A DNA stretch of 40,313 nucleotides from a bacterium (GTDB lineage Bacteria > SAR324 > NAC60-12). A program made the translations under genes and the position numbers. Under the pieces are notes generated by a model. The model searched no databases and was not told the DNA's origin. It saw only the letters and a list, made by a program, of their open reading frames with translations. This document shows positions 22,523 through 39,100 of this stretch, piece by piece; the stretch's first letter is position 1; every line of letters starts with the position of its first letter. The stretch spans positions 1 to 40,313 of the forward strand of contig CBDDTI010000164.1 in the NCBI GenBank assembly GCA_965233585.1, in the 5' to 3' direction.

Positions 22523-22531
22523 CTGCCACCA
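22523..22531 (-). other. Primer binding site, probably tRNA-Leu
   Basis: TGGTGGCAG 2 nt after the LTR end, complementary to the ...CUGCCACCA 3' end of tRNA-Leu(AAG/UAG). Confidence 0.7.
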
Positions 22532-22533
22532 CG

Positions 22534-22945
22534 TGAAAGGTCGGGAGGTATTTTATAACGAGGCTTAGAAATAACGGACGACTTTCGCAAGTGAATGCTA
22601 AATCTAATCTGAATTTATTTCACTTCTTTTGATTACGAAGTAAAACGAGTTTTGTGGTCACGAGTTTTGTTCCCACAAAAGCATATCTTATTGATAAGTG
22701 AGCATGACAACAAAGGCAACAAGTAAGGCGTCGTTGACTGTGGAGTTGAAAAGTGCTTAAGCGCGTGACACCAGAGTGAGGGGTGAGCGATTCTCGAGAA
22801 TTGGAACTGACTCTTAACCAGACCGGTTCATGTCGGGTTAATTAGGTCGTCACTGTAGTTAAGCACAAAACGAGAAGGAAAACTTGCTTTTTAGAAGGGT
22901 GGATTTTATGAACATAAAATTTAAGTAATTAACCTGGACCCTTCA
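22534..22945 (-). repeat. 5' LTR of element B (412 bp)
   Basis: TGAAGGG...CCTTTCA on the minus strand, followed by the PBS. Confidence 0.96.
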
Positions 22946-23151
22946 TTGTAATAAACATAGGTTGGGTTCCTAGGTTTTGGAGCCTTAGGTTGTCGGTGCA
23001 GAGTATAGGTGTCCGACGCCTGCAGCCATTTCTTTATTTTATTTATGGGTATGGTCCCGTTAAAATGATTAAAAACGCGGTTCGGCGATGAAAAAGCAAA
23101 AGGCGAGCCGGGCGAAGTGTAAGCTTTTAAAAATTCGCGTTTAGTAATCAT
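22946..23151 (-). pseudogene. N-terminal fragment of Polinton retroviral-like integrase, truncated by the LTR
   Basis: YTSPGSPFAFSS...IKKWLQASDTYTLHRQP...RNPTYV matches the usual Polinton integrase N-terminus; frame runs into the LTR at 22945. Confidence 0.8.
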
Positions 23152-23569
23152 CCTCGTCGTCGTCGTTGTCGTCCTCAACATAAAACAGCGGTTTTTGTTT
23201 TGTTTTTCTTCTCTTACCGCTTCCTACCGCATGCGTGCTATTTTTTCTCTTGACCGGTCTCTTGGACGCCTGTGCAGGCCTACTCGCCTTACCAGCCAGT
23301 AAGATGTTTCTAGTCGCGGATTTTAATCTCTTTTTCGCAGCGGCTCCAACTGCTTTGCCGTCCAAGGCTTCCAGTGCGGTGTCAATGGCCGCTCGTCCCG
23401 CCTCTTTTTTCAAATATCGTCCCGCGGATCTGACACCCTCGCTTCTCGCAATTTTACCGATTGTCTTTGCGGCGCCCTTCGCCACCGGAACCAACGACCG
23501 GAAAAGACTGCTAAAAATTGAACCTAATCCCGCCCCAGCTTGCACAGACGGACCACGGTGGTATCGCAT
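23141..23569 (-). CDS. Basic virion protein with amphipathic N-terminal helix (adintovirus cupiennin-like)
   Basis: QAGAG|LGSIFSSLFRSLVPVAKGAAKTIGK; K/R-rich C-terminus. Confidence 0.7.
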   Translation of the reverse strand: MRYHRGPSVQAGAGLGSIFSSLFRSLVPVAKGAAKTIGKIARSEGVRSAGRYLKKEAGRAAIDTALEALDGKAVGAAAKKRLKSATRNILLAGKASRPAQASKRPVKRKNSTHAVGSGKRRKTKQKPLFYVEDDNDDDEDDY

Positions 23570-23575
23570 ACTTTA

Positions 23576-24295
23576 TCAATTTTCAATTTTTTTGACGCAC
23601 CTGCTTAAGGCCATCGGACTAACGCCTAATTGCTCGGCTAAACGCGATAAGCTTTTCGGCTTTTCCTGATCAACCCTACTCCGTTGTTCTCTTAAAAAGA
23701 CGTGCGCGCATGCCGCGATTAGTGTTTTTGGCGAAAAAACAAACTTTTTTTCGTGTTGCTTTACTTTCTCTCTAATTTCCTTCAACTCCTTGTAGCTTAG
23801 ATTTAAAGAGTGAAGAAAATATTCGCACATTAAATTTGGGCTGTAGAAAGAGTCGTCGTTTTTAAGATATTGCCACACTTTGTCCTGCTTGACGCCGGTT
23901 ATGGCACATAAATCTTTCATCGGTCGCGGCACCCCCGACTCTATAAGCGCGGTGTAGATGCACATTACCGCTAAACTTTCTAAACAAACACCTCTTTTCC
24001 CTCTTTTCCCGCTAGCGTCCCATTTTTTGGCGATGACGCGTTTTAAATCCGCGCATTCGATATTGCACTTATAGCATACCCTTTGCATTGTCTCATCAGT
24101 AAAATTGTTTTTGTCGCAAGTCACATCCTCGCTCATTTTCTCCGTTTTAATCGATTCGAGCCGATAGTCGTACGGGGCATATAGCCGATCATGCATCACG
24201 AGCCCGCAATCTGTACATACTTCACACCCGTTTGAAAAATCATCCACAATATTGTAATGAGAACAAGTCCTGTTGAAATTATGAAAACGAGGCAT
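23576..24295 (-). CDS. TFIIB-like transcription initiation factor
   Basis: Zn ribbon CSH...DFSNGCEVCTDCGLV; cyclin-fold motifs CIYTA...VPRPMKDLC, SPKTLIAAC, LAEQLGVSPMALSRC. Confidence 0.85.
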   Translation of the reverse strand: MPRFHNFNRTCSHYNIVDDFSNGCEVCTDCGLVMHDRLYAPYDYRLESIKTEKMSEDVTCDKNNFTDETMQRVCYKCNIECADLKRVIAKKWDASGKRGKRGVCLESLAVMCIYTALIESGVPRPMKDLCAITGVKQDKVWQYLKNDDSFYSPNLMCEYFLHSLNLSYKELKEIREKVKQHEKKFVFSPKTLIAACAHVFLREQRSRVDQEKPKSLSRLAEQLGVSPMALSRCVKKIEN

Positions 24296-24320
24296 GTTTA
24301 TTTCTCCGCACGCGCTGCAA

Positions 24321-24356
24321 AACTGAAACGCGAATCAACTATCGATCGCTTTTATA
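24321..24356 (-). promoter_or_regulatory. TATA + Inr promoter of the TFIIB-like gene, overlapping the TBP 3' end
   Basis: TATAAAA (T at 24356) and TCAGTT (A at 24324), 32 nt apart; ATG at 24295. Confidence 0.6.
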
Positions 24357-24899
24357 TTGTTTCAAAAAATCTATAATAAAGTCCAAACTATGTTTGACCG
24401 CATCTTCGGACTTGGCCCCGATGATTACCATCTTGCCTGTGGAAAATATTAAAACCGTGTTGGCTTCAAAAGTCACAAACATGCCTGGGAAACGTTCGGG
24501 ATTGAAGCGTACTTTTTTCACGTAGCTCTCCTTCCGAAGTTTATCAAAAACGTCCGGCAGCGGTATCTCAAAGCCCGCACGAAAGGAACAAGTTAAATTG
24601 TTTATTTCCCATGTTTGCACAAAGAAACGATTGCTGATAATGTCCGTCAGCAGACTTAACGATATTTTTATATCCGCTCGCGATGGCACTTTGGTAATAT
24701 TGACATGATATGATTTGTTGTTTCCGCGGGTCTTGAAAATGGTGTAGACGTATTGTTTCCTCACTACCGTAAAATTACTAAAAACTTTTTGTGACACATC
24801 TTTATTTAAGGATAACGGCCCCTCATCCGTAAGAATAATTGTGCAGCTAAGCTTTATATTTGTCACAGTGACGTGCTCCGTGTTGTCTAGAAATGTCAT
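24339..24899 (-). CDS. TATA-binding protein (TBP)-like, core domain only
   Basis: VTNIKLS, INNLTCSF, RFNPERFPGM, VLIFSTGKMVIIGAKSEDAV. Confidence 0.9.
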   Translation of the reverse strand: MTFLDNTEHVTVTNIKLSCTIILTDEGPLSLNKDVSQKVFSNFTVVRKQYVYTIFKTRGNNKSYHVNITKVPSRADIKISLSLLTDIISNRFFVQTWEINNLTCSFRAGFEIPLPDVFDKLRKESYVKKVRFNPERFPGMFVTFEANTVLIFSTGKMVIIGAKSEDAVKHSLDFIIDFLKQYKSDR

Positions 24900-26233
24900 C
24901 GTTGATTAATGGCGGTGTCGGCGGTTTAAATGTGGATTTCAATGAATTGCAGGGTGATAGTTTGAATGCGCATGCGACCCCCCTCGAAGACACGGATTTA
25001 ATATCAGGTCGTACTGTGCTATATAGTAGCGTGACTCCCGTCGAAGATTTAGAAGATGTTACGTTTTCAATTCCTTCCGACCCCGAATGCGCTTTTGTTT
25101 TAAATCAGACAAGGCTAGAGGGTTACTTTGTGGTAAAGACCGACAGCGGCGAGGGTGTAACAGACACTGACACGCCAACAATTACTAACCATTATTGCGC
25201 CGCATTATTCTCGCAAATTGAAGTCCACCTTAACGGAACTCAAATATGTGATTTGAGTGCCCCTCTTTCTTATTCGTACAAACACCACATTGACTTTCTC
25301 CTGTCCTATAACAATAATGTATTAACAAATGTGGGACGGTCCGAAGGCTTTTGCCGAACGCACCACGACAAATGCTTTGACAATATTAGCACGACCGGTA
25401 AAATGTGCCAATGCATCGCGGAGAATCGTGCGAAAATAATAAACGACAAAAAAGTTTATTTTAGCTCAACTTTGCCCGCAGATATTTTTTACACCGACAA
25501 ATATTTACCTCCGAATGTGGAAATCACTGTTGTATTACGCAGGTTCAACCCGTGTTTCGGGCTGCTTCAAGATAATCCGAACAAAGTCTATCGCATTCGT
25601 TTAAAGGAATTAAAACTTCGCATGAGAAAAGTGTTACCGTGCGAGCGTGTGCGAAACAGGCTAAACGCCGAACTGCTAAAAGGTCGACCATTTTTTCTGC
25701 CTTTTAAAGACACGCAGATGAAGCATTATCTGATCCCGTCTGGTTCCCTTAGTTTCTCTGCAAATCACATCAACAATAGCGAGATGTTGCCGCAACAAAT
25801 TATTTTCTGCATGCTTCGAAGCGACCTTTTTGCCAAGGGACCGAGCGATCAATTTCCCTTTAAATTTAAACACGCCGATTTAGCATCCGTCATTTTAAAA
25901 AACAATGGAAGACTTCTCATGCCTAGACCTATAGAATGCAAGATACTTACAGGCGATTATATGGAATTGTACGACCATTTTCAAAGCAACGTCGGCGGCA
26001 GAAATTGTATTTCACCCCAAGCTTTTACAGAGGGTCAGATGTTTCTCGCGTTCGACCTGACTCCGGATAAATGCCTATCCTTTCACAATCACGTCGGAGT
26101 GCCCGGAAATTTAGAACTAGACTTGACTTTTAACACCCCCACCAGAACCCCCCTAACCCTGATTTCTTACGCTATTTATAATGCTGCCATTTCCATCGAC
26201 AGCAACCTTCAGGTTACCAAAATAAAATATTAA
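24893..26233 (+). CDS. Major capsid protein (hexon-like double jelly-roll), paralog 1
   Basis: FSIP..LNQTRL, ALFSQIEVHLNG, YSYKHHI, DKYLPPNVEI, LPQQII, FLAFDLTPD. Confidence 0.8.
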   Translation: MSSLINGGVGGLNVDFNELQGDSLNAHATPLEDTDLISGRTVLYSSVTPVEDLEDVTFSIPSDPECAFVLNQTRLEGYFVVKTDSGEGVTDTDTPTITNHYCAALFSQIEVHLNGTQICDLSAPLSYSYKHHIDFLLSYNNNVLTNVGRSEGFCRTHHDKCFDNISTTGKMCQCIAENRAKIINDKKVYFSSTLPADIFYTDKYLPPNVEITVVLRRFNPCFGLLQDNPNKVYRIRLKELKLRMRKVLPCERVRNRLNAELLKGRPFFLPFKDTQMKHYLIPSGSLSFSANHINNSEMLPQQIIFCMLRSDLFAKGPSDQFPFKFKHADLASVILKNNGRLLMPRPIECKILTGDYMELYDHFQSNVGGRNCISPQAFTEGQMFLAFDLTPDKCLSFHNHVGVPGNLELDLTFNTPTRTPLTLISYAIYNAAISIDSNLQVTKIKY

Positions 26234-26302
26234 AATTGCACACCACCGACTCCCTCTTTTTAAGAAGAACAGAAAACTACAGACTAGCATGCATTTTCGA
26301 CA

Positions 26303-27637
26303 ATGACTGAAAAGGGCGGCATCGGAGGTCTAGGGTTCGAGCAGGACGATTTGACAGAACAAGCTCTTGATCTGCACGCGCCGCTCGGGGTCGATATAAG
26401 CCTTGAAAAAGGCAATGATGTGGTCTACAACAGCGTTTCCAGCGTTTCAAACACCGGACCGATCGAATTCATCATCCCGCGAGACGAAGAGTGTTCCATC
26501 ATTCTGGATCAGACTAGATTAATAGGGCATTTCGTTGTCAAGACAGCAAAGGATGAAAATGTCGGACCCGACGATCGAGTCTTTTTGGCCAATAATTTCG
26601 CGAGCAATCTATTTAGCGCGGTTGAAATCTACATTAACGGTACTCAAGTCTGCGACTTGAGCACGGCAAATTCCTACCCTTTCAAAAACTTTATCCAGAC
26701 CGAGTTGTCGTTTGATAGAGAGGCCAAACAGAGTCAGCTAAGAGCCGAAGGTTATTTTGAAGAAAAAGAAAACGATATTGGAGCTTGCGAGCCCGGTATA
26801 AATCAGCGTTTAATACACCGTCGAAATCTTATACTTCACGGCAAAAAAGTTTATTTCTGCTCTCGATTGGGGGCGGATATTATGTATACGGATAAGTATA
26901 TGCCACCGAATGTCGACATCAAGATTAAGCTTATTAGAAACAGTCCGACATTCGGTATTCTTCACGCCGAAGATGACAAATCTTTTAAAATCGTTTTAAA
27001 GGATTTAAAGTTGAAAATGAGAAAAGTTTTGCCGGTCGAGCAGCAGAGAAAGCATTTTAGGATGAAAATGTCTCAACAGCCCTGCTATATACCCTTTAAG
27101 CTGAGTCAGTTGAAGGTTTTTGTGATTCCAGCCGGCGTCACATCGTACACCGTTACCAATATTGCCTCACAAATACTGCCCAAACAAGTTATTTTCACCC
27201 TAATTCACAACCAAGCCTTGACGCACGATAGCAAATTCAACCCGTTCGACTTTCAACACTTTGATCTTAATTATTTCAATCTTATTAAAAACGGACAATG
27301 CGTCTTCCCAAAAGCTTTTCAGCCGGATTTTGATGATGATAACTACATGGACCTGTACAGACACATGTACGACAGCACGGGTTTCGGCATTTCAAATAGT
27401 TCTTGCGACATTTCGCCCGCGGTTTTTAAGAGAGGAAGATGTTTTCTAACTGCCGATTTGACCCCCGATCGCTGCAACAGTTTTCACATTCACCCCGACG
27501 AAAAAGGCAAGTTGGACTTGGAATTAGGCTTTAAAACAGCCAAGCCTCACCCCATCTACCTGCTAGCCTACAGCATTTTTAATTCCGGAATTAAAATAGA
27601 GGAGAACGGCCAAGTTGTTAGGGCCGAAGAGCGATAA
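26303..27637 (+). CDS. Major capsid protein (hexon-like), paralog 2
   Basis: GPIEFIIP, NNFASNLFSAVEIYING, YPFKNFIQTEL, DKYMPPNVDIKIKL, NPFDFQHFDL, DLTPD. Confidence 0.85.
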   Translation: MTEKGGIGGLGFEQDDLTEQALDLHAPLGVDISLEKGNDVVYNSVSSVSNTGPIEFIIPRDEECSIILDQTRLIGHFVVKTAKDENVGPDDRVFLANNFASNLFSAVEIYINGTQVCDLSTANSYPFKNFIQTELSFDREAKQSQLRAEGYFEEKENDIGACEPGINQRLIHRRNLILHGKKVYFCSRLGADIMYTDKYMPPNVDIKIKLIRNSPTFGILHAEDDKSFKIVLKDLKLKMRKVLPVEQQRKHFRMKMSQQPCYIPFKLSQLKVFVIPAGVTSYTVTNIASQILPKQVIFTLIHNQALTHDSKFNPFDFQHFDLNYFNLIKNGQCVFPKAFQPDFDDDNYMDLYRHMYDSTGFGISNSSCDISPAVFKRGRCFLTADLTPDRCNSFHIHPDEKGKLDLELGFKTAKPHPIYLLAYSIFNSGIKIEENGQVVRAEER

Positions 27638-28122
27638 TGGCCGGTTTGAGCAACGTATTTCTAGATCGGTTTTTATCCCCACTTTGCAAGAATTTCATCG
27701 GCACCTTTGCAGTCGACACGATACCCTCAAACTTGTGGAACACTAGCTGTTGCGCCATCGTCAATCTTTCGGTTTCAAGCCATCCCGGCAGTCATTTCAT
27801 CGCCTTTTTTATTAATAAGCAAAACTATTTGTATTATTTCGACAGCTATGCACTACCCGTGCCCGCCTATAATCACCACCTCATCCATTTTTTGAAAAAA
27901 TGGGAAAATTGCGGCAGAATAAGACATGTCCTGGACCGATCGATTCAAGCTTTCGATTCATTGTTTTGCGGGTGGTATGCTGCCGCATTCTGCATGTTTG
28001 TCAATGCATACGCAAACGCGAATCCGCGGCACTTTTGCACTTTTTTTAATCCCGTTAATTTACGCGAAAATGAAAAACGCGTCAAACATTTAGTTAATTG
28101 TTTGCAAGTCAAGCTTTATTAG
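27637..28122 (+). CDS. Adenain-like (C5) cysteine maturation protease
   Basis: IVNL...PGSHFIAF, YFDSY, IQ...SLFCGWY give the His/Asp/Gln/Cys set. Confidence 0.9.
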   Translation: MAGLSNVFLDRFLSPLCKNFIGTFAVDTIPSNLWNTSCCAIVNLSVSSHPGSHFIAFFINKQNYLYYFDSYALPVPAYNHHLIHFLKKWENCGRIRHVLDRSIQAFDSLFCGWYAAAFCMFVNAYANANPRHFCTFFNPVNLRENEKRVKHLVNCLQVKLY

Positions 28123-28245
28123 AATATACAGAATTGCCTATAATGTTTTAGTTAATAAAAAGCCGCAAATCTGATTTCTGTTCTGCAGCAAAGCTGCAGT
28201 CGCCGCCGTTGCCGCGGCTGTTGCCGCGGTTGCACACACGCATCT

Positions 28246-29458
28246 TCACTTGCCGCCGAGTTTGGCATTGATGGGGAAATCCAGACCTTGACACAGCTCC
28301 ACCATACCCTCGGTAAATTCATCCAACTTGTGCAGAGGAAAATTCATCCTAATTATCTTGGTGCTGTGGCTTTTGTTGTTGTCGTTATACTGCGGGAAAA
28401 AAGATTTTTTACGCATTTTTCCGCTCAATTTTTTTCTATTTACATTTTTATTTCGCCTTACCTGCTCTTTAGAGACGTAAAATACCGGCCACACGCTAAG
28501 GCCCGCAGCACGCTGGATATGCCTAACGCCGCTAACTCCAATTACCATCCTAGGGTTGGATGCAATCACTTTGCTCATTGGGGCAAAAGGCAAGCTCACC
28601 GATCGCGATGACACCTCCTTGTTTTTAAAAGCCTCAATAAACTTTTTCATGGTGGCTGGATTAGGGTAGATGTACTGTTGAGCAAAACAGTGTGAAAAGT
28701 TTTTTAATTAAAAATACGCTGAGCTGATTTCAAACTGTTTTACTCACCCCGTCGTCTCCAATAAAATATTGTTCGCGATGGCTGTGGCTTTCAAGCCACT
28801 TGGAAAAGTTTACCTCCGCGGTTTTTACGCGCTCGTTAAGATCCCATTTGCAGGGTCGAAACAACTCCTCTTGCTTTTTCCTTGTCAAATTAATCCCATC
28901 CACCTTGGACGAAACCGGCTCCGGCTCGACATAATTTTTCCTCTTTGAATCGGGTAATTTCTTTTTGCCTGAATCGGACCTTGGTCTTTTTTTCGCGCAA
29001 AACGGCTTTCTTTGATCCTCCATCTCCGGTTCTTCAATATCAGTCGGAGCATCGTCATCATCTTCGTCATCATCGTCATCCTCGTTATCATCTTGGGCAG
29101 CATCAGACTCAACATCGTTATCATCGTTATCAGAGCCGTCTTGCATGTTCTCTGAGCCGGATTCTTCAGACTCGTCATCGCTTGAATTCTCGTTGTCTCT
29201 CATGTCCTCATCCTTCTCCATGTCTGAGTCGGAATCTTCTAATTGCTTATGTCCTTTGTTCGCAGATGACGAACGGGATTTGGCAAGTTTACTACTTTTT
29301 TGCTCTTTGGTGTAAACTTTTGACGTTTTTTCAACGTGGCTTTTTTCGAACGGTGTCTTTTTCGCGACCTTTTTATGCGCAGACTTCCCCTTTTTTTTGT
29401 ACAAGATCGTCTTGCTGCCTTTGCCATTGCTTTCAGATGATGTAGCCGGTTTACCCAT
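28246..29458 (-). CDS. Spliced gene: K-rich/acidic N-terminus plus globular C-terminal domain (possibly PC4-like); exons 29458-28748, 28674-28462, 28389-28246
   Basis: GGG|GTGAGT...CAACAG|TAC (73 nt) joins the two ORFs in frame; second in-frame intron CAG|GTAAGG...TTTTCCCGCAG|TAT (72 nt). Confidence 0.65.
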
Positions 29459-30585
29459 GACGCGACCGATGTTTTATCTTAGGTGTGGATGTGAAGCCAG
29501 TCAAACTATTATTGGTGTTTCACCAAAAGCGCAAATTGGCTTTTATACTATTTTGACTTGTATAATGGCAAATGCTAGAATATTCTCGATGAAATTATGG
29601 TCAACTTTTTAACCCATTTTAAGGCAAAAAAAGTTCTAGAAGAAACTAGAAAAATCTAAAAGCAATTATTTTTATAAAGGTTTGAAAAAAATTTAAAAAT
29701 GCTCATTTCAAATTTTTTTTGTCGGTAAAATGACCTAAAATTAGGGCATCTTTTGTAAAATGGAGAATTTTTTCTCCTTTTTAGATGCTGCTCCTTGGCA
29801 CGTGCTTTTTTTTCTCACTTGAGCTAATGGTTTTTCTGCTTAATGGTTTTCAACGCTAATTTTCCTTCCAGAAAATTGTCATTCTTTATTTCTTTGACCG
29901 CAAAAAAGGGTGCAAAGACCCGATTGTTAACCTTTTAATAATTAATCTTTTTTCCTTTTGCTGATTTATTTTAATGGGTGTGCTGCTAAAAAATTGACTG
30001 TTGTTTAAAAGAAAAAACAATTTTTAGCAAACACACTGTCTCATATCTTGTCATTAATTTGCTCCAATTTCGGCGCTTTTGCTTTAAGCCTTAATGCATG
30101 TGCGGAAAAATGAACAAAAATAAAGGAAAATTGCACGGAAAACACAATCTGACGTCAGGTTGCGGGGATAAAAAGGATTTACAAGAAAGGTTAAAATTTT
30201 CTCCAAAATTAATTATCTTTTGAAAAAAACCAGGTTTAATTTTTGCGCCTTTTTCTACTATTAAAAAGTTTACATGAATGACCCTTTTTGAGATAAGGAG
30301 TCATTCCAAAATCTAAACTGAAACCGAAAAGATCCTGGTTTTATCTTTTAGACACTTGAAAAAATCGTAAGTAGACAAAAAAGTCTTTACAATTTTTAAA
30401 CATTGAAGTTTTTTTTAAAAATATTTTTAAACATAAAGTTGGTTAAAGTCTAAAAATTTTTTACACAAATTGAGCTTACGCAAAAAAAAATTTAACAAGT
30501 GCTCAAAGTCTTAAAATTTTTTACCCAAAATTGAGCTTACGCAAAAAATCTTAAACCTGATTTCAACCACCCTGCTTTCTAGACA
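29459..30585. promoter_or_regulatory. AT-rich divergent intergenic control region
   Basis: No ORFs; TATAAAA on minus strand at 29547, CACGTG near 29799, CTGACGTCAG (CRE/ATF) 30149-30158. Confidence 0.5.
30445..30548 (+). repeat. ~44-bp direct repeat, 60-bp period
   Basis: aaagtc..aaaattttttac..aaattgagcttacgcaaaaaa at 30445 and 30505. Confidence 0.85.
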
Positions 30586-31356
30586 ATGCCAAAAAATAGG
30601 GAATCAAGATTGATTGGTTTTAAGAGGTGTGGGCCTTTCCAAATAAAACTGGGAAGAAGGACACCTGTGGAACAAGTCTCGGTCGAGCTCACGTCCGCAT
30701 CTTCCACCGTCGCGCTGCCTTCGAATTCACCGCCCGCTTCCCTTTCCACTTCCTTTATACGAATTAGAACTGAGCCCCTTTTAACCTCGACACCAAACAC
30801 CTCGTTCAGACCGGTGTGTTACAGCCCTCCGCCTTCCCCATCGCCCGTGGCATCACCGGTCTATTCAATGCCGGCTCCCTATCGTCCGCTTCAACCTGGT
30901 TTGTTTTTGCCGGGCCCCCCAACTCCGGCTCCACCGAGACTACCAATTATGTCTCCAACGGCTGTGCCCCTCCCGCAATCCCCAATGTTGTGTGACATGA
31001 GGGCTTTGCGGGCTCAGCTAAGGCCGATCCGTCCGGCACCGATAACAACTCCGCTTCTAGCTGCACCGCCGCGACTCGTCATCCCCGAACCGCAAAGGGT
31101 GGTAAGATTACCGCGCGTGTCGGTAAATGGAGGGGTCATAAGTGAGGGGCTCGACTTGAGGGTAAACCGCCCCTGTCCGGATCCGCAGGTTTTTACGGAA
31201 AAATTGAAAAAAATTTTAAGTAAGGTGTCCCCCTTGCTCGTATTTTACGAGTCGCAAGGGGAAAATTTATTTTTAAACCCTTCCATACGCGATCTGTATA
31301 AAAAAAATTTAACTGAAGTCCAAGAATTTGTAGAAAGTGCAAATAATTTATTGTAA
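30586..31356 (+). CDS. Proline-rich hypothetical protein with helical C-terminus
   Basis: 256-aa GC-rich ORF within AT-rich flanks. Confidence 0.65.
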   Translation: MPKNRESRLIGFKRCGPFQIKLGRRTPVEQVSVELTSASSTVALPSNSPPASLSTSFIRIRTEPLLTSTPNTSFRPVCYSPPPSPSPVASPVYSMPAPYRPLQPGLFLPGPPTPAPPRLPIMSPTAVPLPQSPMLCDMRALRAQLRPIRPAPITTPLLAAPPRLVIPEPQRVVRLPRVSVNGGVISEGLDLRVNRPCPDPQVFTEKLKKILSKVSPLLVFYESQGENLFLNPSIRDLYKKNLTEVQEFVESANNLL

Positions 31357-31451
31357 ATATAACAATTGTTTGTGTGTGTATATATTAAAGATTATAAGAT
31401 ACATCATTTTTTCCTTTTTCAGAAAAAGTTTAAAAGCGAGAGAAAAAAAGA

Positions 31452-32087
31452 ATGACGCACAAGTGTGAAACGTGTCACATATCGTTTTCCAGAAAGAGTC
31501 GTCTTGTCAATCATTTAAAATTAAAACACAGAAATCAAGCAAATCATAGTGGTCGCGACAAGTTAAGAAAGTGCCCGTTTTGTGAACTTAAATACAGTGA
31601 TAAGAACGAGTTATCGTCACACGTAGATTCGAATCACGCGGAATCAAGGGTATTTTCTAAAAGGCAAGGAGCCATTGGCGACAAAGTTTGCATTTTCCAA
31701 CAAGAACTGACTCACCTAAAAAGCTCTTTGCAAGATTTTTGCAACTCTAAGCAAACGATCGAAAATGTGTTGAATCTCGTTAAAAGTCAATTTACACATC
31801 GGGTGGTTTGTCGAATAAGTATAACAATCACGGCAGATTACGAGATACAGGGTTTAGATGAAGAAAGTCAGGGAAAAAGCGTCGACATCGATTCTTTCAC
31901 GTTACGGTCAAAAGGCGTCGCGGTCAACAAATATCAAAGCGATGAGCAGATTCGAGATAGGATAAAGTCACTTTTGGTTGGATCGGTGGAGAGGGAAGAC
32001 GATTTGTTAACTAGAGGTTCAGGCTGGCGATTTGCTCAACTTCAAAGTTGCAGCGTTTTAATCTATGACTGTAGCAGTATTTTTTAA
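31452..32087 (+). CDS. C2H2 zinc fingers + GSGW domain (normally the N-terminal part of Polinton pPolB)
   Basis: CETC...HLKLKH, CPFC...HVDSNH, LTRGSGWRF. Confidence 0.75.
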   Translation: MTHKCETCHISFSRKSRLVNHLKLKHRNQANHSGRDKLRKCPFCELKYSDKNELSSHVDSNHAESRVFSKRQGAIGDKVCIFQQELTHLKSSLQDFCNSKQTIENVLNLVKSQFTHRVVCRISITITADYEIQGLDEESQGKSVDIDSFTLRSKGVAVNKYQSDEQIRDRIKSLLVGSVEREDDLLTRGSGWRFAQLQSCSVLIYDCSSIF

Positions 32088-32089
32088 AA

Positions 32090-35000
32090 ATGAACAGCGA
32101 CTCTGTAAACGTGCCCGAGTATTTATTAAAGTGTCGAAGTGTTTTATGGAACAGAAAATACGATGAAAAGAACTTTCTATATTGTGTCATACGACATCTT
32201 TGGCCGGAAACGGCAAACATCAGACGATGCGAAAAAATTCCCAAGGAGTATGAAAGTAAATTTAACTTGCAAGGTTTAACCTTTCCCCTGCAGTTTAGCC
32301 AGATTAGTAAGTTTGTTCGAATTAACAAGCACCTACCGTTACGTATAAGAGTTCTTTTTGAAGGTGAACATCAACTGAGTGTTTTAGACGTTTTCTCCAA
32401 TAGATCTGGCGAGAAAAATAAGAACAAAAATACGCTAAATTTGCTAATGATTAAAAGTGATTGTCGAATTTCATCGGCCAATAAAGACAGCATTGACGTA
32501 AATGGCATTTCCAACGTAAAAGACCTTGAGCATCAGCACCATTTTTTCACTATTGCTAATTTAAATGGCTTTTTGAACAACCGAAAATCTGCTATGACCA
32601 AAGGAAGACGGCATAGAAGTCAGTTTTATTTTTGTGACAGCTGTTTAAGAGATTTTCGTTCGCACAAGAAACAAAAATTACACGAAAAAATCTGTCAAAT
32701 GGATAAACAAGCGGTGATTTATCCGGAAAAGGGCAGTGTCTTGAATTTCGATAAGCAAAGAAATGCTTTTAAAGCACCTGTAGTGGGATTTGCTGATTTT
32801 GAGTGTTTTATGGAAAAGTCAGAGCAAGAAGCAAAAACATGTAAAACATGCGGAAAAGCGTGGGTGACATGCGAATGTCAAGTGTCGGGATGCACTGAGC
32901 TAAGTAAACATCGAGCTTGCGGCTATTCAATTTGTTTTGTCGATTCGGAAAACGAAGTATTTTATCAAGAAACGTACAGTGGAAAAGACGCTGTGGAAAA
33001 TTTTCTATCAAAGCTGGATTATTTCGAAGAATTAGTGGAAGCGCGAAAGCAACGGTTCAAGAACACATCTCAAATTATAGCGAGCAAACATGATTGGGAA
33101 GAGTACCGCGCCGCCACGCTATGTCATATTTGCAAAAAAGAATTTGATTCAGGCTCGCGATTATATAAAAAAGTGGTTGATCATGATCACGTCACCGGAA
33201 ACATTGTTCAAGCGGCGCATTCTATTTGCAATCTGCAACGACAGGGCCCATTTAGAACACCTATATACTTTCACAACGCCAAAGGGTAAGTACAGACTTT
33301 TTTAATATTTATAATCCTTGACTTGAGGGAAAGTCATTTTAAATTTTTTTAATTTTAAGATATGACATAAATCTACTAGTAGAAAAATTGGACAAAGAGG
33401 CTAATCTGATGGCGAGTAACCAAGAAAAGTTTAGGACAATCACTATTGGAAAATTTCAAATTAGGGATTCTCTAGAGCACGTGCCATCCAGTCTTGATGC
33501 GCTCATGACCGATTTATGCAAGGATGAGACGTTTACCTTTCCGATTCTCAAACAATTCGAGCCTTACAGGAGGCTGTGGACGCGACAAAAGGCGAAAGGT
33601 TTAAAATTATTGAAAAGAAAAGGAGTATATCCGTATGAATACTTTTCATCATATGAGTCAATTAAAAACAGTCAATTTCCACCAAAAGACGCTTTCTACT
33701 CGAGATTGAGCGAAGCCCACATCTCAACCGAAGATCATAAGCACGGCTATGAAGTGTACAAGTTTTTTAATTGTAAAAATATGGACGACTACATGAAGTT
33801 ATATTGCGGACTGGACGTGATTTTGCTGGCTGAGATTTTTGTAAAGTATCGAGAAATGGTGATGAAGCACTTTGAGTTGGATCCCATCTACTATTTAGGT
33901 ATACCTGGCTTGTCATTTGACATCATGCTGAAAATGTTTCAAAATGAAGAAAGAAAAGACGAAGAAGAGATTAGTGCCGATTTTATGTCGAAACCACCGG
34001 GCTCATTGGACTTGTTTCACGATCCGGCAATGGAACAGTTTTTTACACGCGGCATTAGAGGAGGGCAGAGTTTTATAGCTACCAGACAAGCGACGGGTCA
34101 GGCCGATCCTAAAGCGAGCGGCGAGCATTTACTATATGTAGATGGTAATATTTTTTATTAAACGTCAAAGAAAAAAAGATTGATTAAAATTACGATACAT
34201 TTTCAGCTAACAATCTTTACGGCAGCATGGAAACACGCATGCTGCCGGTGGGTAATTTTAAGTGGGTGCCAAAAAAGGTGATAAAAACATGGACGGACAA
34301 GGACATTTTGAATTTGCCTTCGCAAAGCAGGATTGGCTATGCTTTTGAAGTGGATTTGCACTATCCAAAAAAATATCATAAGGTAAAAAAATTTGTTTTT
34401 GCTAAACACCAACTGCTAGAAAAATTTTTTTATTTATTTTGCAGAGAGATGATCAATTTCCTTTGGCTCCTTACACTGACACAATAAACTTTGATGATCT
34501 GTCACCGTTTAACAAACAACTTTTGAAGAAGCACTGTCCGGCTGATTACAAAAACAAACGTTACAGTTCGCGAAAGCTTCTTGCCACATTCTACCCGCGA
34601 CGTAAATATGTCGTCTTGTTAGATAATCTAAAGTATTATTTGAGGCGAGGGCTGAAGCTTACAAAAATCAGACGAGCGGTCAAGTTTGAGCAAAAAGACT
34701 TTTTAAAAAACTTTATCACAAAAATTACAAAATTAAGGTCGGAGGCGAAAACTGATTTTGAATTACGTCTCTTCAAGTTGTTTGCCAATTCCACATTTGG
34801 CAAATTTATAGGTAAAATAAAGTAATGGCTCCCTTTTTTCACAATAAAATGTTTAATTTTTTTTCAGAGAACGCGCGAAACTACATCGAAATCGTGTTGT
34901 GCCACAATGAAAAGAAGCTGAGAAAGACTTGCATGGGTCAGCATGTTTCGAATTTGAAAGTCATAAACGAAAACCTTGTGGCTGTCATGAAAAAACCGGC

Positions 35001-35655
35001 CGTTATTGAAATGAAGAAACCGTTGGCGGTGGGGTTTGCGATTTTGGAACTATCCAAACTCTACATGTATCGATCGTACGACAAATTTAGACGTTACTTT
35101 GGAACGGAGAATCTAAAGTTGTGCTTTTCGGACACAGACTCGTTTCTGTTTCAAGTAAAATGTCAAAATTTAGTTAAAAAGTTAAAAAGAATGGAACACA
35201 TGTTCGACTTCTCAAAATACGATAAAGATCACGAGTTGTTTGACGATAGCAGAGCCAACCATTTGTTTTACTTCAAAGACGAGCTAAAAGGAAAGGCCGC
35301 AATTACTGAATTTATCGGCTTAAGGCCAAAATGTTACAGCATGACGGTCAAGGATTTGAAAACCCGAGGAGCCAGCGTAAAGAAAATTTGTAAGGGCCTT
35401 AAAAAAACTAGTATTAAAAATCACTTGACCTTTGAGGATTACAAAAAATGTTTAAACGAATCAACATTGGTATATAAGCCTCTTGTTAATATTAAATCAA
35501 AGAATCACAGAATGTCAACAACCCACCAACGAAAAATTGCTCTATCTGCCATGGACACCAAACGTTATGTGCTTTCTTGCGGAAAGTGCACTTTGGCCTT
35601 AGGAAGTTGTCATGTAAAAAAATGTTGTAAACATGAATGTAAGGAAATCAAATAA
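32090..35655 (+). CDS. polB: Protein-primed family B DNA polymerase; exons 32090-33285, 33360-34144, 34207-34382, 34445-34811, 34868-35655
   Basis: ExoI FADFE, endonuclease VII-like CHIC...DHDHVTG...HSICNL. Splicing restores FHNAKGYD, YVDANNLYG, YHKRDDQFPLAP, KLFANSTFGKFIEN; motif C SDTDS. Confidence 0.92.
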
Positions 35656-35718
35656 ACGTATTGATAAAAATTGATGGTAATATCTTGTCTCTTTTTTGTG
35701 TCAAGAAAAATTAAAAAC

Positions 35719-36405
35719 ATGGACGGATTTGATTTGCGCTTTAAGCTTCCATCTAACTTACTCGCGGTAGGTCCCACTTCTTGCGGAAAAACGTCATGGC
35801 TAAAAAAACTGGTTGAAGATAGGGCCGTAATGTGCTCGCCCGTTCCGGAATGTATGATTCTATTTTACAAAGAATTTCAACCGGCCTATGCTGATATGGA
35901 GCGAGGGATGAACGATGACGCGCGTGAGAAGAGGTTCTGCAAATTTTCATCCATGCCAGAATCGGTTGAAGAGATGAAAGATATACTGGAAACGTTCCCT
36001 AGAGCTCTTCCAAAAATTGTAGTATTTGACGATTTTCTTGATGAAGTAGGAACGGTGCTAAAGCACTTTTTCACGGTTTTAACGCATCATTATAATTGTT
36101 TGACAGTTTTTTTGTGTCAGAACATGTTTAGCGCCAAAAGCGAACTCAGAATGCTCAGCATCAACTCGCAGTACATGATTTTATTCAACAATCCCAGAGA
36201 CCGTAGCGCCGTCTCGCACCTGGCTAAACAGGTGTATCCGGGTAACGTGCATCGGCTAAACGATGCATATGCGGCAGCAACCGGTGAAAGACCTTATGGC
36301 TATTTACTGCTGGATTTTCATCAGCAGCAGAATAATTTGGTTCGATTAAGAAGTCATATTTTTCCGGACGAACAGCCTACAAGGGCGTACAACGTACGCA
36401 CGTAA
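35719..36405 (+). CDS. FtsK/A32-like genome packaging ATPase
   Basis: Walker A GPTSCGKT, Walker B VVFDD, THHYN, FLCQN, NSQY, PYGYLLLD. Confidence 0.9.
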   Translation: MDGFDLRFKLPSNLLAVGPTSCGKTSWLKKLVEDRAVMCSPVPECMILFYKEFQPAYADMERGMNDDAREKRFCKFSSMPESVEEMKDILETFPRALPKIVVFDDFLDEVGTVLKHFFTVLTHHYNCLTVFLCQNMFSAKSELRMLSINSQYMILFNNPRDRSAVSHLAKQVYPGNVHRLNDAYAAATGERPYGYLLLDFHQQQNNLVRLRSHIFPDEQPTRAYNVRT

Positions 36406-36435
36406 GAATGGCAAAATCGTTAAGTAGAATGGTAA

Positions 36436-36789
36436 ATGACGAAATCACTAGAAAAAGCAGTTTCTCTTTTAAACGCGGTAAAACATTTAAAAGACCGTGA
36501 CTGTTCCAATTTCATTGGATGTTTAAACGAGGAAGGCATCTATACTCTGTGTCGAATAATACACTACGTTTTGAACGGAGAGCTTACTTTTAGTAAGCGC
36601 GTTCGAGCAAGGTTAAGATCGAAAGTCGGGTGTCATCTGCCTGACTTTAAAAAACTGTCAAATTACCCGCGCAATAGTCGAGATATTTGCAAAAAGAAGC
36701 GAATACTGCAAAGAGGAGGCATAATCGGGGTTCTGACGGCTATTGCTAGCGCTGTAATACCTCTAATCACTCAACTTATTACAAAATGA
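36436..36789 (+). CDS. Small virion protein with adenovirus pX-like C-terminus (GasderminX-type)
   Basis: KKRILQRGG|IIGVLTAIASAVIPLI resembles pX RGG|ILPLLIPLIAAAIG. Confidence 0.6.
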   Translation: MTKSLEKAVSLLNAVKHLKDRDCSNFIGCLNEEGIYTLCRIIHYVLNGELTFSKRVRARLRSKVGCHLPDFKKLSNYPRNSRDICKKKRILQRGGIIGVLTAIASAVIPLITQLITK

Positions 36790-38282
36790 AAAAGAAACAG
36801 GAAGAGGACGTATCCACCATGTTTTTGGTGCCGAAACGAATTTACCTTGCCTTGAGGGAGGTCATTAGCGAAGATGACAAGCTTAATCAATTAGATCAAT
36901 TGAATAAAGGTACAAATTATATAGAAGACGCTATTCAATTTAAGCAGCAGAAATCCTACAAGACACAACCGGAAGATTTGAAGAAAACGGTTTCAACTTT
37001 GGTAAATACGTTCAATAACATTGAGCAGCCAGCACAGATGGAAATAAACACCTTGCCTGCTCGAAACAGCGAAGAACTCTCGCAAAATGGTTTTACTTCT
37101 GTCCCTCCATCAAGCGGAAGCCAGCCCGATGGTCCTAATTTCATCTTTCCACCTGTAAATCCAACGGAAGCGGAAAACGTAAAACATCAAAAGGAAATAA
37201 CGCTTTCGCATCAGGAAATTGCATCGGAAAATTTACTTAATAACGAGCCTCAGCCTCAACACTGCGAACCATCAAACATCGACTTGAAAAAGAAAAACAT
37301 CGTTCCGCCAAAACTTAGATGCCCGTTTTGTAACTATGCAACCTACTCAAGGGTATATTTTCTTATGCAACATTTGCGTAATAAACACAACTACCGCGCT
37401 AGTTTGGAAGAAGAAAGATTAGCGAGAGAAACATTGGAAAAGGCCAAAATTGAGCGCAATTCAAACAAAACCAAGGAACCTTTGCCATCTTTTCGCGGCA
37501 AAAGAAAAAACATTAGTGACGAGGATGAAAGCGGCATTCCATCAAAGCGGCGAAAACGTGATTGTTTAACTAAAAATTACGATGAAAATGAACCACTTTC
37601 GAAATTAAGACGCAATGTAAAAAATAAAAAATTAAATGCAAAACCAACAAAGAAAAAGGTAAAAAAGTCAACTTTTGATGAAAACGAGCCACTTTCTAAA
37701 TTAAGACGTCAAGGTGTAAAAACGAAGAAAGAAAAGAAAGAATCAAGAAAATTAACTGTTGATGAAATACCTAAACAAGATGAAAAGGTTTTTAAATTAC
37801 GAAAAAACCCGTTTTACATGAAGCCTTATAAAAAATACAATACGAAGAAAGAAAAGAAAGAATTAAAAAAGTTGACTGTTGATGAAATACTTAAACAGGA
37901 TGGGAAGCTTTTTAAATTACGAAAAAACCCGTTTTACAAGAAGCCTTGTGAAAATTTCGATGAAAATGAACCACTTTCGAAATTAAGACGCAATGTAAAA
38001 AATAAAAAAATAAATGCAAAACCGACAAAGAGAAAGTTAAAAGAGTCGACTTTTGATGAAAACGAGCCACTTTCTAAATTAAGACATCGAGGTGTAAAAA
38101 CGAAGAAAGAAAAGAAAGAGTTAAAAAAGTTGACTGATGATGAAATACAGCTTTTTAAATTACGAAAAAACCCATTTTACAAGAAGCCTTATAAAAATTA
38201 CGATGAAAATGAACCACTTTCAAAATTAAGACGCAATAGTAAAAAAAAAACCCGTTTTACAAGAAGCCATTTCCTAAATTGA
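36786..38282 (+). CDS. Hypothetical protein: C2H2 finger plus Lys-rich repeat tail
   Basis: CPFC...HLRNKH; DENEPLSKLR x5, FKLRKNPFY x3. Confidence 0.75.
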   Translation: MKKKQEEDVSTMFLVPKRIYLALREVISEDDKLNQLDQLNKGTNYIEDAIQFKQQKSYKTQPEDLKKTVSTLVNTFNNIEQPAQMEINTLPARNSEELSQNGFTSVPPSSGSQPDGPNFIFPPVNPTEAENVKHQKEITLSHQEIASENLLNNEPQPQHCEPSNIDLKKKNIVPPKLRCPFCNYATYSRVYFLMQHLRNKHNYRASLEEERLARETLEKAKIERNSNKTKEPLPSFRGKRKNISDEDESGIPSKRRKRDCLTKNYDENEPLSKLRRNVKNKKLNAKPTKKKVKKSTFDENEPLSKLRRQGVKTKKEKKESRKLTVDEIPKQDEKVFKLRKNPFYMKPYKKYNTKKEKKELKKLTVDEILKQDGKLFKLRKNPFYKKPCENFDENEPLSKLRRNVKNKKINAKPTKRKLKESTFDENEPLSKLRHRGVKTKKEKKELKKLTDDEIQLFKLRKNPFYKKPYKNYDENEPLSKLRRNSKKKTRFTRSHFLN

Positions 38283-38453
38283 TTGTTAGAAAGTTTTAAG
38301 AAAAAGAAGATGAAAAGATAAAAATAAAATTTTCATATTTTTGCAATTTCCTTAACTATTTAGTAACAGCATTCCGTTGAAGTTTATTGCAAAAAAAGAA
38401 AAGAAAAACCCCCAAGTTATTGAGCACGTTTCTTCGTCTATGGACCGCTGACA

Positions 38454-38513
38454 TTCTGGTGCCGGGATCTAAAATTTCACGCCAGCGTCAAAATTGAGAT
38501 CCCGGCACCAGAA
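38454..38513. repeat. 60-nt hairpin with perfect 17-bp outer arms
   Basis: ttctggtgccgggatct (38454-38470) / agatcccggcaccagaa (38497-38513). Confidence 0.92.
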
Positions 38514-38564
38514 AAAGTAATGCAGACAAGTAAAATTTTGATGCGTGCATGAAATTTTTAGTGC

Positions 38565-38877
38565 GTGCACCAACTTTTTCATGCCTGCATTAGACAGAGC
38601 AATGCAGGCACCAAACTTTTCATGCACGCACCAAACTTCTCATGCCAGCATTAGACAAAGCAATGCAGGCACCAGATTTTTCGTGCACGCGCCAAACTTT
38701 TCATGCCAGCATTAGACGAAGCAATGCAGGCACCAAACTTTTCATGCACGCACCAAATTTCTCATGCCGGCATTAGACGGAGCAATGCAGGCACCAAACT
38801 TTTGGTGCACGCACCAAATTTCTCATGCCAGCATTAGACACAGCAATGCACGCACCAAACTTTTGGTGCACGCACCA
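38565..38877. repeat. 61-bp tandem repeat x5 built from ~20-bp subunits
   Basis: gcattagac at 38587, 38648, 38709, 38770, 38831. Confidence 0.95.
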
Positions 38878-38946
38878 GAAATCGGTGTGCATTTAGATGA
38901 TTTTAGATTGAATCAGTTGACGTTTTGCTTGCAACGAGAACGCATC

Positions 38947-38997
38947 TAGATGAATTTAGATGAATTTAGAACGCATTTAGATGAATTTAGATGAATT
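38947..38997. repeat. 10-bp repeat (tagatgaatt)
   Basis: Four near-perfect copies around one variant unit. Confidence 0.85.
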
Positions 38998-39100
38998 CGG
39001 GCCGAAAACATCTAAAAACAAGCTTCTGTCATCCGTTTTGAAAATTGGGCCTGTTGTGACAAGTCACTATTTTTTAATTACAGCTCTTTTTCACTCTTCA

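Follow-up and report, generated by a model that had tools for sequence, protein, structure and literature searches.

What does an integrating element of ~20 kb do with a TBP and a TFIIB of its own? The way in which Polintons turn on their virion genes bears on whether the Polintons integrated in animal genomes are latent viruses. The window, i.e. the whole stretch of 40,313 nucleotides that was analysed, carries the two genes side by side. A first reading made from the letters of the window (the sequence-only reading) had assigned them to a Polinton-like virus that redirects host Pol II or Pol III to its own promoters.

The element that houses the pair is a true Polinton/Maverick, since it encodes a protein-primed family B DNA polymerase (pPolB) and an rve integrase. 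The earlier label therefore holds for the possession of TBP and TFIIB and fails in its narrow sense of a Polinton-like virus. The window contains the right 16.1 kb (22946..39039, unstranded) of an element of ~20.6 kb, and this part shares 97-99.5% identity with several further copies in the same assembly (G000). The left ~4.5 kb are missing from the window copy; a complete copy lies, for example, at G000:C47:3000-23625. Terminal inverted repeats of ~600 nt were found at both ends of copies C47, C382, C530 and C435, and the right repeat of the window (38438..39039, unstranded), with its 61-nt subrepeats, matches both ends of complete copies. The five copies inspected for target-site duplication had ragged ends and none was evident there. 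The integrase gene of the window is a 5' fragment (22946..23181, minus strand), cut off at the junction with an LTR retrotransposon, while the intact integrase in C47 has 369 aa with rve and chromo domains (PF00665, E 4e-10). The polymerase occupies several open frames (32090..35655, plus strand; Pfam DNA_pol_B_2, PF03175, E 3e-7). They are split by gaps bounded by GT..AG, with breaks at like places in other families, and the gaps are probably spliceosomal introns.

The packaging ATPase (35674..36405, likely start 35719, plus strand) was recognised by a P-loop ATPase match, and the adenain-like maturation protease (27637..28122, plus strand) by a weak match to Pfam Peptidase_C5 (E 0.08). In the relative L021 the ATPase gave weak IVa2/FtsK matches in Pfam and the protease matched Peptidase_C5 with E 0.003. 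From their size and position, and by analogy with adintovirus hexons, we take the genes at 24893..26233 (446 aa) and 26303..27637 (444 aa), both on the plus strand and 39% identical, to be copies 1 and 2 of the major capsid protein. Copy 2 is conserved in all related loci. Together with a 530-aa gene, these genes are conserved at the places expected for the double jelly-roll major and single jelly-roll minor capsid proteins, and searches of Pfam and PDB gave no sequence match for the putative capsid proteins. A 142-aa gene (23141..23569, minus strand; no Pfam match) is conserved directly downstream of TFIIB and is presumably the virion accessory gene labelled 'cupiennin-like' after Starrett et al. 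The 'GasderminX-like' gene of the window encodes 117 aa, and C2H2 zinc-finger ORFs recur in these Polintons. As the sequence-only reading had noted, no RNA polymerase is visible: none of its families was matched by the 18 window ORFs or by 61 accessory ORFs from 12 loci. The latter also matched no TFIIS or VLTF family.

The TBP gene (24339..24899, minus strand; 186 aa) and the TFIIB gene (23576..24295, minus strand; 239 aa) run uninterrupted from ATG to stop and lie 43 nt apart. The 'cupiennin-like' ORF begins 6 nt downstream of TFIIB, and the ATG of the first capsid gene (24893) overlaps that of TBP head-to-head. These coordinates confirm the intronless tandem packed between the 'cupiennin-like' and capsid genes. 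TBP matches Pfam PF00352 with E 1e-16, and its AlphaFold model (pLDDT 91) is a two-lobed saddle. The proposed fold was borne out by a structural search, in which archaeal, human and yeast TBP aligned over both lobes (165-166 residues, Z 16.5-16.7, rmsd 2.3-2.4 Å) and the best non-TBP row reached Z 8.3. Sequence identity is only 18-25% to cellular TBPs and at most 21% to giant-virus TBPs, which are the best viral fold matches. No N-terminal tail is present. ESM Atlas returned the TBP and TFIIB family assignments and nothing further.

The central Asn pair and three of the four intercalating Phe are retained (N14, N101, F55 and F137 in 51/51 TBP sequences, F152 in 49/51). The first intercalating position is F40 in the window and Tyr, Lys, Phe or His in 20, 10, 9 and 7 of the 51 sequences. 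New residues of the DNA face, K16, H65, N67 and K70, are nearly invariant (50-51 of 51) and give the N-lobe an apparently remodelled surface. The first repeat, which had been described as eroded, is not: it retains the fold and has nearly invariant residues of its own. In the C-lobe stirrup, the first Glu is replaced by Asn in 49/51 sequences and the second (E135) is retained in 46/51. Judged from the alignment, the loss of Glu lowers the case for a canonical TBP, not the case for a protein that would work like TBP. Helix H2 has lost its basic patch, with a net charge of -0.5 in the 51 viral sequences against +1.75 in four eukaryotic TBPs. No host TBP was found in the 12-Mb assembly, where all 41 PF00352 matches lie at Polinton loci.

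The viral TFIIB consists of a zinc ribbon, a short linker, two cyclin repeats and a terminal helix-turn-helix. It matches human TFIIB in phmmer with E 2e-6, and the profile of its family aligns to human residues 111-284 with E 2.8e-11. The ribbon residues C11, H13, C27 and C30 (C-x-H...C-x2-C) are present in 48/48 sequences, while the ribbon scores below the Pfam cut-off (PF08271, E 1e-4) and has low confidence in the model. In the fold search, which used a model of pLDDT 72, the top three rows were TFIIB/TFB (169 residues, Z 8.7-9.0, rmsd 7.0-7.6 Å), in agreement with the TFIIB fold originally proposed. S226 and R232 occur in 46/48 sequences. The B-reader/B-linker region has shrunk to ~25 unconserved residues versus ~64 in human TFIIB, and the B-reader is largely missing. 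Since the first intercalating Phe position of TBP is variable as well, the activity of the pair could be reduced or unusual.

TBP and TFIIB are adjacent at 41/41 loci of the assembly, with full-length ORFs at 39/41 for each gene. Of 81 metagenome or IMG/VR loci examined, 65 extend 700 nt or more downstream, and all 65 have the two genes side by side. Since the loci are related, these counts are not independent events. Both genes are under purifying selection (dN/dS 0.08-0.28 in 9/9 TBP pairs and 0.14-0.28 in 8/9 TFIIB pairs). Trees of TBP, TFIIB, capsid and integrase from 30 loci agree (Mantel rho 0.85-0.95), and the capsid tree reproduces 13/13 supported splits of the TBP tree; the outgroup of the TBP tree held few giant-virus TBPs and no identified animal TBP/TRF. 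The one-off capture that the sequence-only reading had named as its refutation was not seen, as other copies and a wide clade also carry the genes, with trees that match capsid and integrase. A recent host capture is ruled out by the low identity to cellular TBPs and the congruent trees. An IMG/VR scan with the single window TBP found no relative, and five weak IMG/VR loci from a TFIIB-alignment scan were not Polintons. When a TBP-less sister clade was sought in IMG/VR with capsid and ATPase alignments, only the contig of L021 and one 6-kb contig were returned.

Co-evolution of the two proteins had also been suggested, and one contact speaks for it. The Arg that pairs with the stirrup Glu is outside the five commonest residues in 48 TFIIB sequences, so that its loss appears to accompany the change from Glu to Asn in TBP. 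Judging by these alignments, remodelling has affected residues of the DNA face as well as one salt bridge between TBP and TFIIB. The predicted TBP-TFIIB complex scored 0.44 against 0.00 for the best control, with at least 34% of contacts shared between runs and a partner pLDDT of at least 68. The mark applied was passed by 116/157 solved and 2/215 mismatched pairs, and passing scores of at most 0.60 came from only 18 of the 157 solved pairs and from both mismatches. As a like complex has already been solved, the prediction may be memory, and it lends the pairing weak support.

We found a candidate target for the altered DNA specificity that had been ascribed to the viral TBP. The box C[AT]NTAT[TG]T[AT]A emerged from an unseeded motif search of 75 regions that lie upstream of ATPase, penton and GasderminX-like genes. 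The search used EM in place of plain k-mer ranking, which AT-rich words swamped. The commonest form of the box contains TATTTAA, and its density is 4.2 per kb versus 0.35 in the background. Held-out capsid genes carried it in 29/38 cases, and in 1/38 on the opposite strand. It precedes 2/47 TBP, 0/60 TFIIB, 1/16 polymerase, 1/36 protease and 0/9 integrase genes, and only 8/34 'cupiennin-like' genes. Nothing initiator-like was conserved 25-35 nt downstream. A function as a 3'-end signal was ruled out, since no same-strand gene ends near the box of the capsid gene.

In the window, the candidate late box of the first capsid gene is CTTTATTTAAGG (24800..24811, plus strand), which lies 93 nt before the ATG and antisense in the TBP coding sequence. 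It scores 9.5 bits with a matrix trained on other genes, and the identical sequence is present in C47. Candidate variants stand on the plus strand before the second capsid gene (26254..26265, intergenic; only the [TG]TAAG core matches well), the packaging ATPase (35633..35644) and the 'GasderminX-like' gene (36396..36407). For the ATPase, the match to the metagenome consensus is weak and the core recurs at a like distance in other families. The 'GasderminX-like' box is weak here and a clear TAT[TG]TAAG in C579, C593 and C112. In the family of the window, the boxes of these two genes retain only the core. No [TG]TAAG was present within 130 nt of penton and protease genes in the families of this assembly (0/8 each), and none was listed before the capsid ORF of the single-capsid families C579, C112 and C30.

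The upstream regions show a second class of putative promoter, a host-type TATA with initiator, distinct from the virion-gene box. It precedes TBP in only 14/50 loci (shuffles: mean 0.6, maximum 4), and the TBP of the window has none upstream. The TFIIB gene of the window has a candidate early promoter at 24322..24356 (minus strand), composed of TATAAAAG (24356-24349), which sits within the last TBP codons, and the initiator-like TCAGT (24326-24322). In several other families of the assembly, a TATA at -58 to -73 is followed ~30 nt on by an initiator-like word. We infer that 24322..24356 works as an early promoter of TFIIB.

Taken together, the two proteins are probably an orthogonal TBP-TFIIB pair, expressed early, that directs host Pol II to late promoters. 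Both genes would be transcribed by host TFIID and Pol II from ordinary TATA and initiator promoters. The viral TBP would then bind C[AT]NTAT[TG]T[AT]A through its remodelled N-lobe, the viral TFIIB would dock on the C-lobe stirrup, and the helix-turn-helix at its end may recognise the upstream C[AT]N. The invariant zinc ribbon would bring host Pol II to the capsid, packaging ATPase and other virion genes. The pair would thus be the dedicated initiation system of one Polinton/Maverick clade and drive its early-to-late switch. That the two proteins of 186 and 239 aa and a ~12-bp box suffice for initiation by host Pol II without TFIID, TFIIA and host TFIIB is a tentative extension, which we would sooner doubt than believe.

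It is unlikely that the pair is directed mainly against the host. As a decoy or dominant-negative, it would titrate Pol II, the partners of TFIIB or TATA boxes and so damp host transcription, e.g. antiviral or silencing, and the viral boxes would be left to host TFIID unaided. A decoy would fit a box that differs from TATA by only a few bases, and a TFIIB that misses the B-reader while its zinc ribbon, able to occupy Pol II, is invariant. Without the basic patch on H2, host regulators may also fail to evict the viral TBP. However, two observations would not be expected of a decoy: a second class of promoter specific to virion genes, to the exclusion of TBP and TFIIB, and the new invariant residues of the DNA face.

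We give similarly little credence to a reading in which only the TBP recognises the box and its partner is host TFIIB or a different viral factor, e.g. one of the conserved C2H2 zinc-finger proteins, while the viral TFIIB serves a separate or auxiliary function. TFIIB adjoins TBP at every locus with room, is under equal selection and lacks the Arg whose partner Glu is missing from TBP, and all this outweighs for us the retained E135, the recurrent zinc-finger ORFs and the 121 distant TBP representatives in the tree that are known without genomic context. When genomic contexts of these representatives were sought, an alignment scan returned none and a GTDB scan one archaeal match.

Mimicry of TFIIIB, by which the pair would recruit Pol III or guide the integrase to Pol III-like sites, is very improbable: the short B-reader region, BRF1/BRF2 among the fold matches and a position two genes away from the integrase agree with it, but the family profile finds BRF2 only with E 0.38 and BRF1 not at all at E<=1, the protein stops at its second repeat without a BRF-type C-terminal extension, and the boxes stand before long protein-coding genes. 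Of the two polymerases first proposed, Pol II is thus favoured, and its recruitment by the pair is what the sequences suggest. Virophage promoters mimic the late promoters of their helpers. That the element likewise needs a co-infecting giant virus, whose RNA polymerase the pair would adapt, is hardly to be expected. In its favour, the two contigs that IMG/VR yielded had been sorted into giant-virus bins, and among viral proteins the fold search matched giant-virus TBPs best. Against it, the identity to these is low, one of the binned contigs (L021) is a 20-kb Polinton in its own right, and the probable pPolB introns and host-type promoters point to nuclear transcription by Pol II.

Recruitment of host Pol II by a viral pair has parallels in larger viruses. 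Orthogonal viral TBP-TFIIB pairs, with the stirrup residue and its partner Arg changed together, are described in the accessible part of Ravarani et al. 2020 (PMC7221094), and that of PMC12085832 names giant viruses without RNA polymerase, e.g. CpV-BQ1, among the carriers. As far as these texts extend, the pairs of large dsDNA viruses share with ours the two factors, the stirrup/Arg change, an N-lobe regulatory patch that is not retained and a presumed redirection of host Pol II when a viral polymerase is absent. Unlike them, the Polinton pair belongs to a ~20-kb integrating genome, its genes are adjacent, minimal and fixed in a virion-module operon, and its candidate cognate promoter is readable from sequence. 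The late pre-initiation complex of beta- and gammaherpesviruses (KSHV ORF24, EBV BcRF1, HCMV UL87; TATTWAA promoters), in the available portion of PMC6541308, also combines host Pol II with a TBP-fold protein of viral origin and has structural genes marked by a TATT-type box. There, a large TBP mimic, one of six proteins in the complex, itself makes the contact with Pol II and the promoter has a downstream RVNYS, whereas the Polintons have a bare TBP core, a true TFIIB homologue and an upstream C[AT]N. BcRF1 was matched in the fold search with E 1e-3 and 12% identity. We saw no kinship between the sequences, so the resemblance, which includes the TATT late promoters of herpesviruses, probably arose by convergence. 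We claim it as functional only: none of the six vPIC protein families was among the Pfam matches of 79 ORFs, many of which had no match.

With the adintoviruses, Polintons and Mavericks of Starrett et al. 2021 (PMC8502044; 10.1101/697771, both in part), the element shares pPolB, rve integrase, adenain, packaging ATPase, capsid-sized genes, terminal inverted repeats and the Beta-class virion-module 'cupiennin-like' and 'GasderminX-like' genes (PMC8502044). Unlike the adintoviruses of that partial text, the clade of the window holds TBP and TFIIB as core genes. Cellular TBP-TFIIB (1VOL, 1C9B) and archaeal TBP-TFB (1AIS) have the same folds, zinc ribbon and terminal helix-turn-helix; the viral pair differs from them in the missing N-terminal tail and basic H2 patch, the shortened B-reader region and the new invariant DNA-face residues. 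In the literature on such viruses we found only one 'TBP' label. TATA, TBP and TFII are nowhere mentioned in the available text of PMC11161782, 10.64898/2026.06.19.733378 and 10.64898/2026.10.13.758929, and TFIIB in that of 10.1101/2022.05.25.493380 concerns giant viruses.

The clade extends virus-encoded basal transcription factors from genomes of more than 100 kb to a 20-kb element, and it offers a testable circuit, with host-type promoters for the two factors and a separate box for the capsid and packaging genes. If the pair were sufficient, it would act as a late switch built into the integrated animal Polintons of a widespread clade, and these 'transposons' would run a regulated viral cascade. 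It would also provide a compact and orthogonal promoter system for Pol II, as well as a natural model for an altered-specificity TBP and for a TFIIB without B-reader.

The candidate promoters are interlocked in the TBP gene, with the antisense capsid box at its 5' end and the TATA of TFIIB at its 3' end. At 32/50 loci, the box of the capsid gene occupies one homologous site inside TBP. Of 44 relatives, 42 use TTA as the Leu codon there, compared with 296/758 elsewhere, which shows a constraint at the nucleotide level, by which the embedded box would fix the codon. A weaker bias was observed at the Asp/Asn codon of column 30, where 37 codons end in T and 9 in C, compared with 703 and 406 overall.

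The TBP-TFIIB pair in this Polinton is real. Both genes are uninterrupted ORFs on the minus strand, TBP at 24339-24899 (Pfam and fold match) and TFIIB at 23576-24295 (profile and fold match), with 43 nt between them, which bears out the intact adjacent pair of the sequence-only reading. They are flanked by a cupiennin-like gene and by the first of the capsid-sized genes; the start codons of the latter and of TBP overlap. The TBP matched Pfam with an E of 1e-16, and its predicted fold (pLDDT 91) matched cellular TBPs across both lobes (Z 16.5-16.7, rmsd 2.3-2.4 Å). The first TBP repeat, which had been called eroded, is therefore remodelled instead. The single-sequence match of TFIIB was weaker (E 2e-6), and a profile of 28 sequences matched human TFIIB with an E of 2.8e-11. 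TFIIB/TFB ranked first in fold searches, with modest scores; the expected folds were found for both proteins.

The pair lies in the right 16 kb (22946-39039) of a Polinton/Maverick of about 20.6 kb. Complete copies, such as G000:C47:3000-23625 in the same assembly, carry inverted repeats of about 600 nt, an rve-chromo integrase, a 530-aa gene at the penton position, two capsid-sized genes, a protease, an ATPase and a protein-primed polymerase (pPolB). The window copy ends within the integrase, at an LTR retrotransposon (8513-22946) that has near-identical LTRs, long gag and pol, and an env-like ORF of 1084 aa; a second, inverted copy, about 78% identical, occupies the left end of the window (1-7124). 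Labelling genes as capsid, penton, cupiennin-like or GasderminX-like is putative, following gene position and Starrett et al., and no tool match backed these names. The two capsid-sized paralogues (24893-27637) are in tandem and 39% identical; this arrangement is confined to five families, those of C164, C58, C98, C593 and C93, and a single capsid-sized gene is present in the remaining families and in the metagenome loci.

The pair is a core module of the element and not a capture. In the home assembly (G000) there are 41 TBP and 41 TFIIB loci from several families, 29-100% identical. The two genes are adjacent in 41/41, the ORFs are full-length in 39/41 for each gene, and the first-capsid 5' end faces TBP in 40 of the 41 with room. 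A metagenome scan found 99 loci, of which 80 were kept and joined by the IMG/VR Polinton contig L021 (81 loci, not dereplicated). Here TFIIB comes next after TBP wherever there is room (65/65) and the capsid gene faces TBP in 59/60, the gene order being protease and capsid, facing TBP, TFIIB, cupiennin-like gene, integrase and penton. dN/dS was 0.08-0.28 for TBP (nine pairs) and 0.14-0.28 for TFIIB in eight of nine pairs, the ninth value of 0.72 resting on four differences. Among 30 dereplicated loci, out of 41 having all four genes, TBP, TFIIB, capsid and integrase tree distances correlate at 0.85-0.95; the capsid tree repeats 13/13 supported TBP splits and 16/17 TFIIB splits, with one conflict. 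Adjacency, selection and congruent trees all speak against the one-off capture that the sequence-only reading had allowed for. Among the 150 top-ranked representatives (clustered at 50% identity), 107 have the family motif H-x-N-x-T. In a tree of 195 sequences, 172 family members (121 of them chosen by motif) split with a support of 0.999 from 23 others, namely 7 archaeal, 4 eukaryotic and 12 IMG/VR sequences, an outgroup in which most giant viruses are missing and no animal TBP/TRF is identified.

A TATA with an initiator-like word at canonical spacing was found upstream of 14/50 TBP genes (shuffles: mean 0.6, maximum 4), and [TG]CAGT upstream of 25/50 (shuffle mean 8.2). The combination preceded 2/35 penton and 1/34 cupiennin-like genes, and it was absent upstream of the genes for capsid, protease, ATPase, GasderminX-like protein and polymerase. 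In G000 families the TFIIB gene has this combination instead; in the window, the candidate for TFIIB (24356-24322, minus strand) has its TATA inside the last TBP codons, and none was found upstream of TBP. In most metagenome loci (L030-L108) the TFIIB ATG sits about 40 nt within the TBP 3' end, giving a conserved Cys-Leu/Ile in TBP, and at these loci a single transcript may cover both genes; the G000 families differ, their TFIIB having its own candidate TATA promoter.

The virion genes carry a different word. An unseeded EM motif search of 75 regions upstream of ATPase, GasderminX-like and penton genes returned C[AT][CG]TAT[TG]T[AT]A, a TATA-like candidate late box. At 8 bits or more it was present before 29/38 held-out capsid genes (1/38 when the opposite strand was scored), 2/47 TBP, 0/60 TFIIB, 1/16 polymerase, 1/36 protease, 0/9 integrase and 8/34 cupiennin-like genes; its density was 4.2 per kb before capsid genes versus 0.35 elsewhere. 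In 32/50 loci the box for the capsid gene falls at a single shared site inside TBP, in antisense orientation (in the window, a motif match at 24800-24811). Because the Leu codon at this site is TTA in 42/44 cases, versus 296/758 for Leu elsewhere in these TBP genes, the constraint acts on DNA and not on protein. In eight G000 copies, some of them related, [TG]TAAG occurs 30-110 nt upstream of 22/27 capsid, ATPase and GasderminX-like genes (six-letter-word background 0.09 per 85 nt), and anywhere in the 130 nt upstream of 1/16 TBP/TFIIB, 0/8 penton and 0/8 protease genes. Because the loci are related, the promoter counts cannot be treated as independent. Another word resembling the box, CA[CG]TAATTAA[AG], is found on the sense strand inside the TFIIB gene, 170-190 nt before the cupiennin-like gene (L033, L035, L061, L062, L069 and others; mostly below 8 bits), and could be a late promoter of the cupiennin-integrase-penton run.

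From these sequence patterns we consider it reasonably likely that an early-expressed viral TBP-TFIIB pair brings host Pol II to the virion genes via the variant box. Host Pol II would transcribe the TBP and TFIIB genes early; viral TBP would then bind the box, viral TFIIB would dock on it, and the TFIIB ribbon would draw host Pol II to the virion genes. Genes lacking a box could be reached by read-through from upstream. That the pair instead acts as a decoy directed at the host seems unlikely.

Across 51 TBPs of the element, F55, F137, F152 and the two central Asn residues are retained, and the fourth intercalating position is variable. K16, H65, N67 and K70 are found in 50-51/51, where cellular TBPs have V/I, K/R, V and G; from alignment to the saddle strands, we take them to be DNA-facing. 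Helix H2 is without the basic patch (net charge -0.5 versus +1.75). The TFIIB zinc ligands are invariant (48/48), S and R of the last helix are retained in 46/48, and the B-reader region is shortened to about 25 residues. The first Glu of the TBP stirrup pair is Asn in 49/51 and the second is retained in 46/51; the TFIIB positions aligned to human R169 and T176 are mainly N, I or S and mainly S, P or T. According to PMC7221094, the stirrup Glu residues pair with Arg and Thr, co-varying in orthogonal viral pairs; we infer that these are R169 and T176. The predicted TBP-TFIIB complex scored 0.44 versus 0.00 for the best control (contact agreement at least 34%, partner pLDDT at least 68), a mark reached by 116/157 solved and 2/215 mismatched pairs, with scores up to 0.60 within the mark coming from only 18/157 solved pairs and both mismatches, and with a similar complex already solved. 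The model lends weak support to the pairing. A TBP working without viral TFIIB appears unlikely.

The proposed recruitment of host Pol II by the pair has parallels. Large dsDNA viruses encode orthogonal TBP-TFIIB pairs (PMC7221094), also without a viral polymerase (PMC12085832), and ariadnaviruses have TFIIB alone (10.64898/2026.08.29.747986). Herpesviruses use a viral TBP mimic and host Pol II at TATTWAA late promoters (PMC6541308), comparable to the late reading proposed here. In the accessible text of the literature searched, the sole mention of a Polinton TBP is the label "TBP" in a Starrett figure legend (PMC8502044), and no Polinton TFIIB or promoter box was reported, figures and most subscription papers being outside that scope. 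The TBP-TFIIB-box system is unusually testable. Recruitment of Pol III is highly improbable, as the TFIIB profile favours TFIIB (2.8e-11) over BRF2 (only 0.38) and BRF1 was absent among its listed matches. We give equally little credence to a pair serving the polymerase of a helper giant virus. The sequence-only reading had remarked that no RNA polymerase is visible in the window; no RNA polymerase family matched any of 18 ORFs there, or any of the 61 accessory ORFs analysed out of 91 listed for 12 loci.

pPolB is interrupted by AT-rich gaps with GT..AG ends (33286-33360, 34145-34207, 34383-34445 and from 34811). The first gap, 59-86 nt long, has the same position in several divergent families, and metagenome relatives break at similar positions; the viral polymerase gene probably has spliceosomal introns that are conserved. 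Together with the TCAGT initiator, which is typical of arthropods, these probable introns suggest an invertebrate host. A dUTPase gene on the opposite strand within the split polymerase span (L021:3750-4175, L049:16371-16790) is apparently located inside one gap. Two C2H2 zinc-finger ORFs, just before the polymerase (31452-32087) and after the GasderminX-like gene (36786-38282), recur across the clade and could encode promoter-specific regulators. Although G000 is classed as prokaryotic (92% complete, 2% contaminated), dozens of its contigs carry eukaryotic Polintons and retrotransposons. L021:1-20370, a 20.6-kb Polinton contig of the same clade, is filed in IMG/VR within a giant-virus bin, and therefore databases may label some TBPs of the Polinton family as "giant-virus" proteins.
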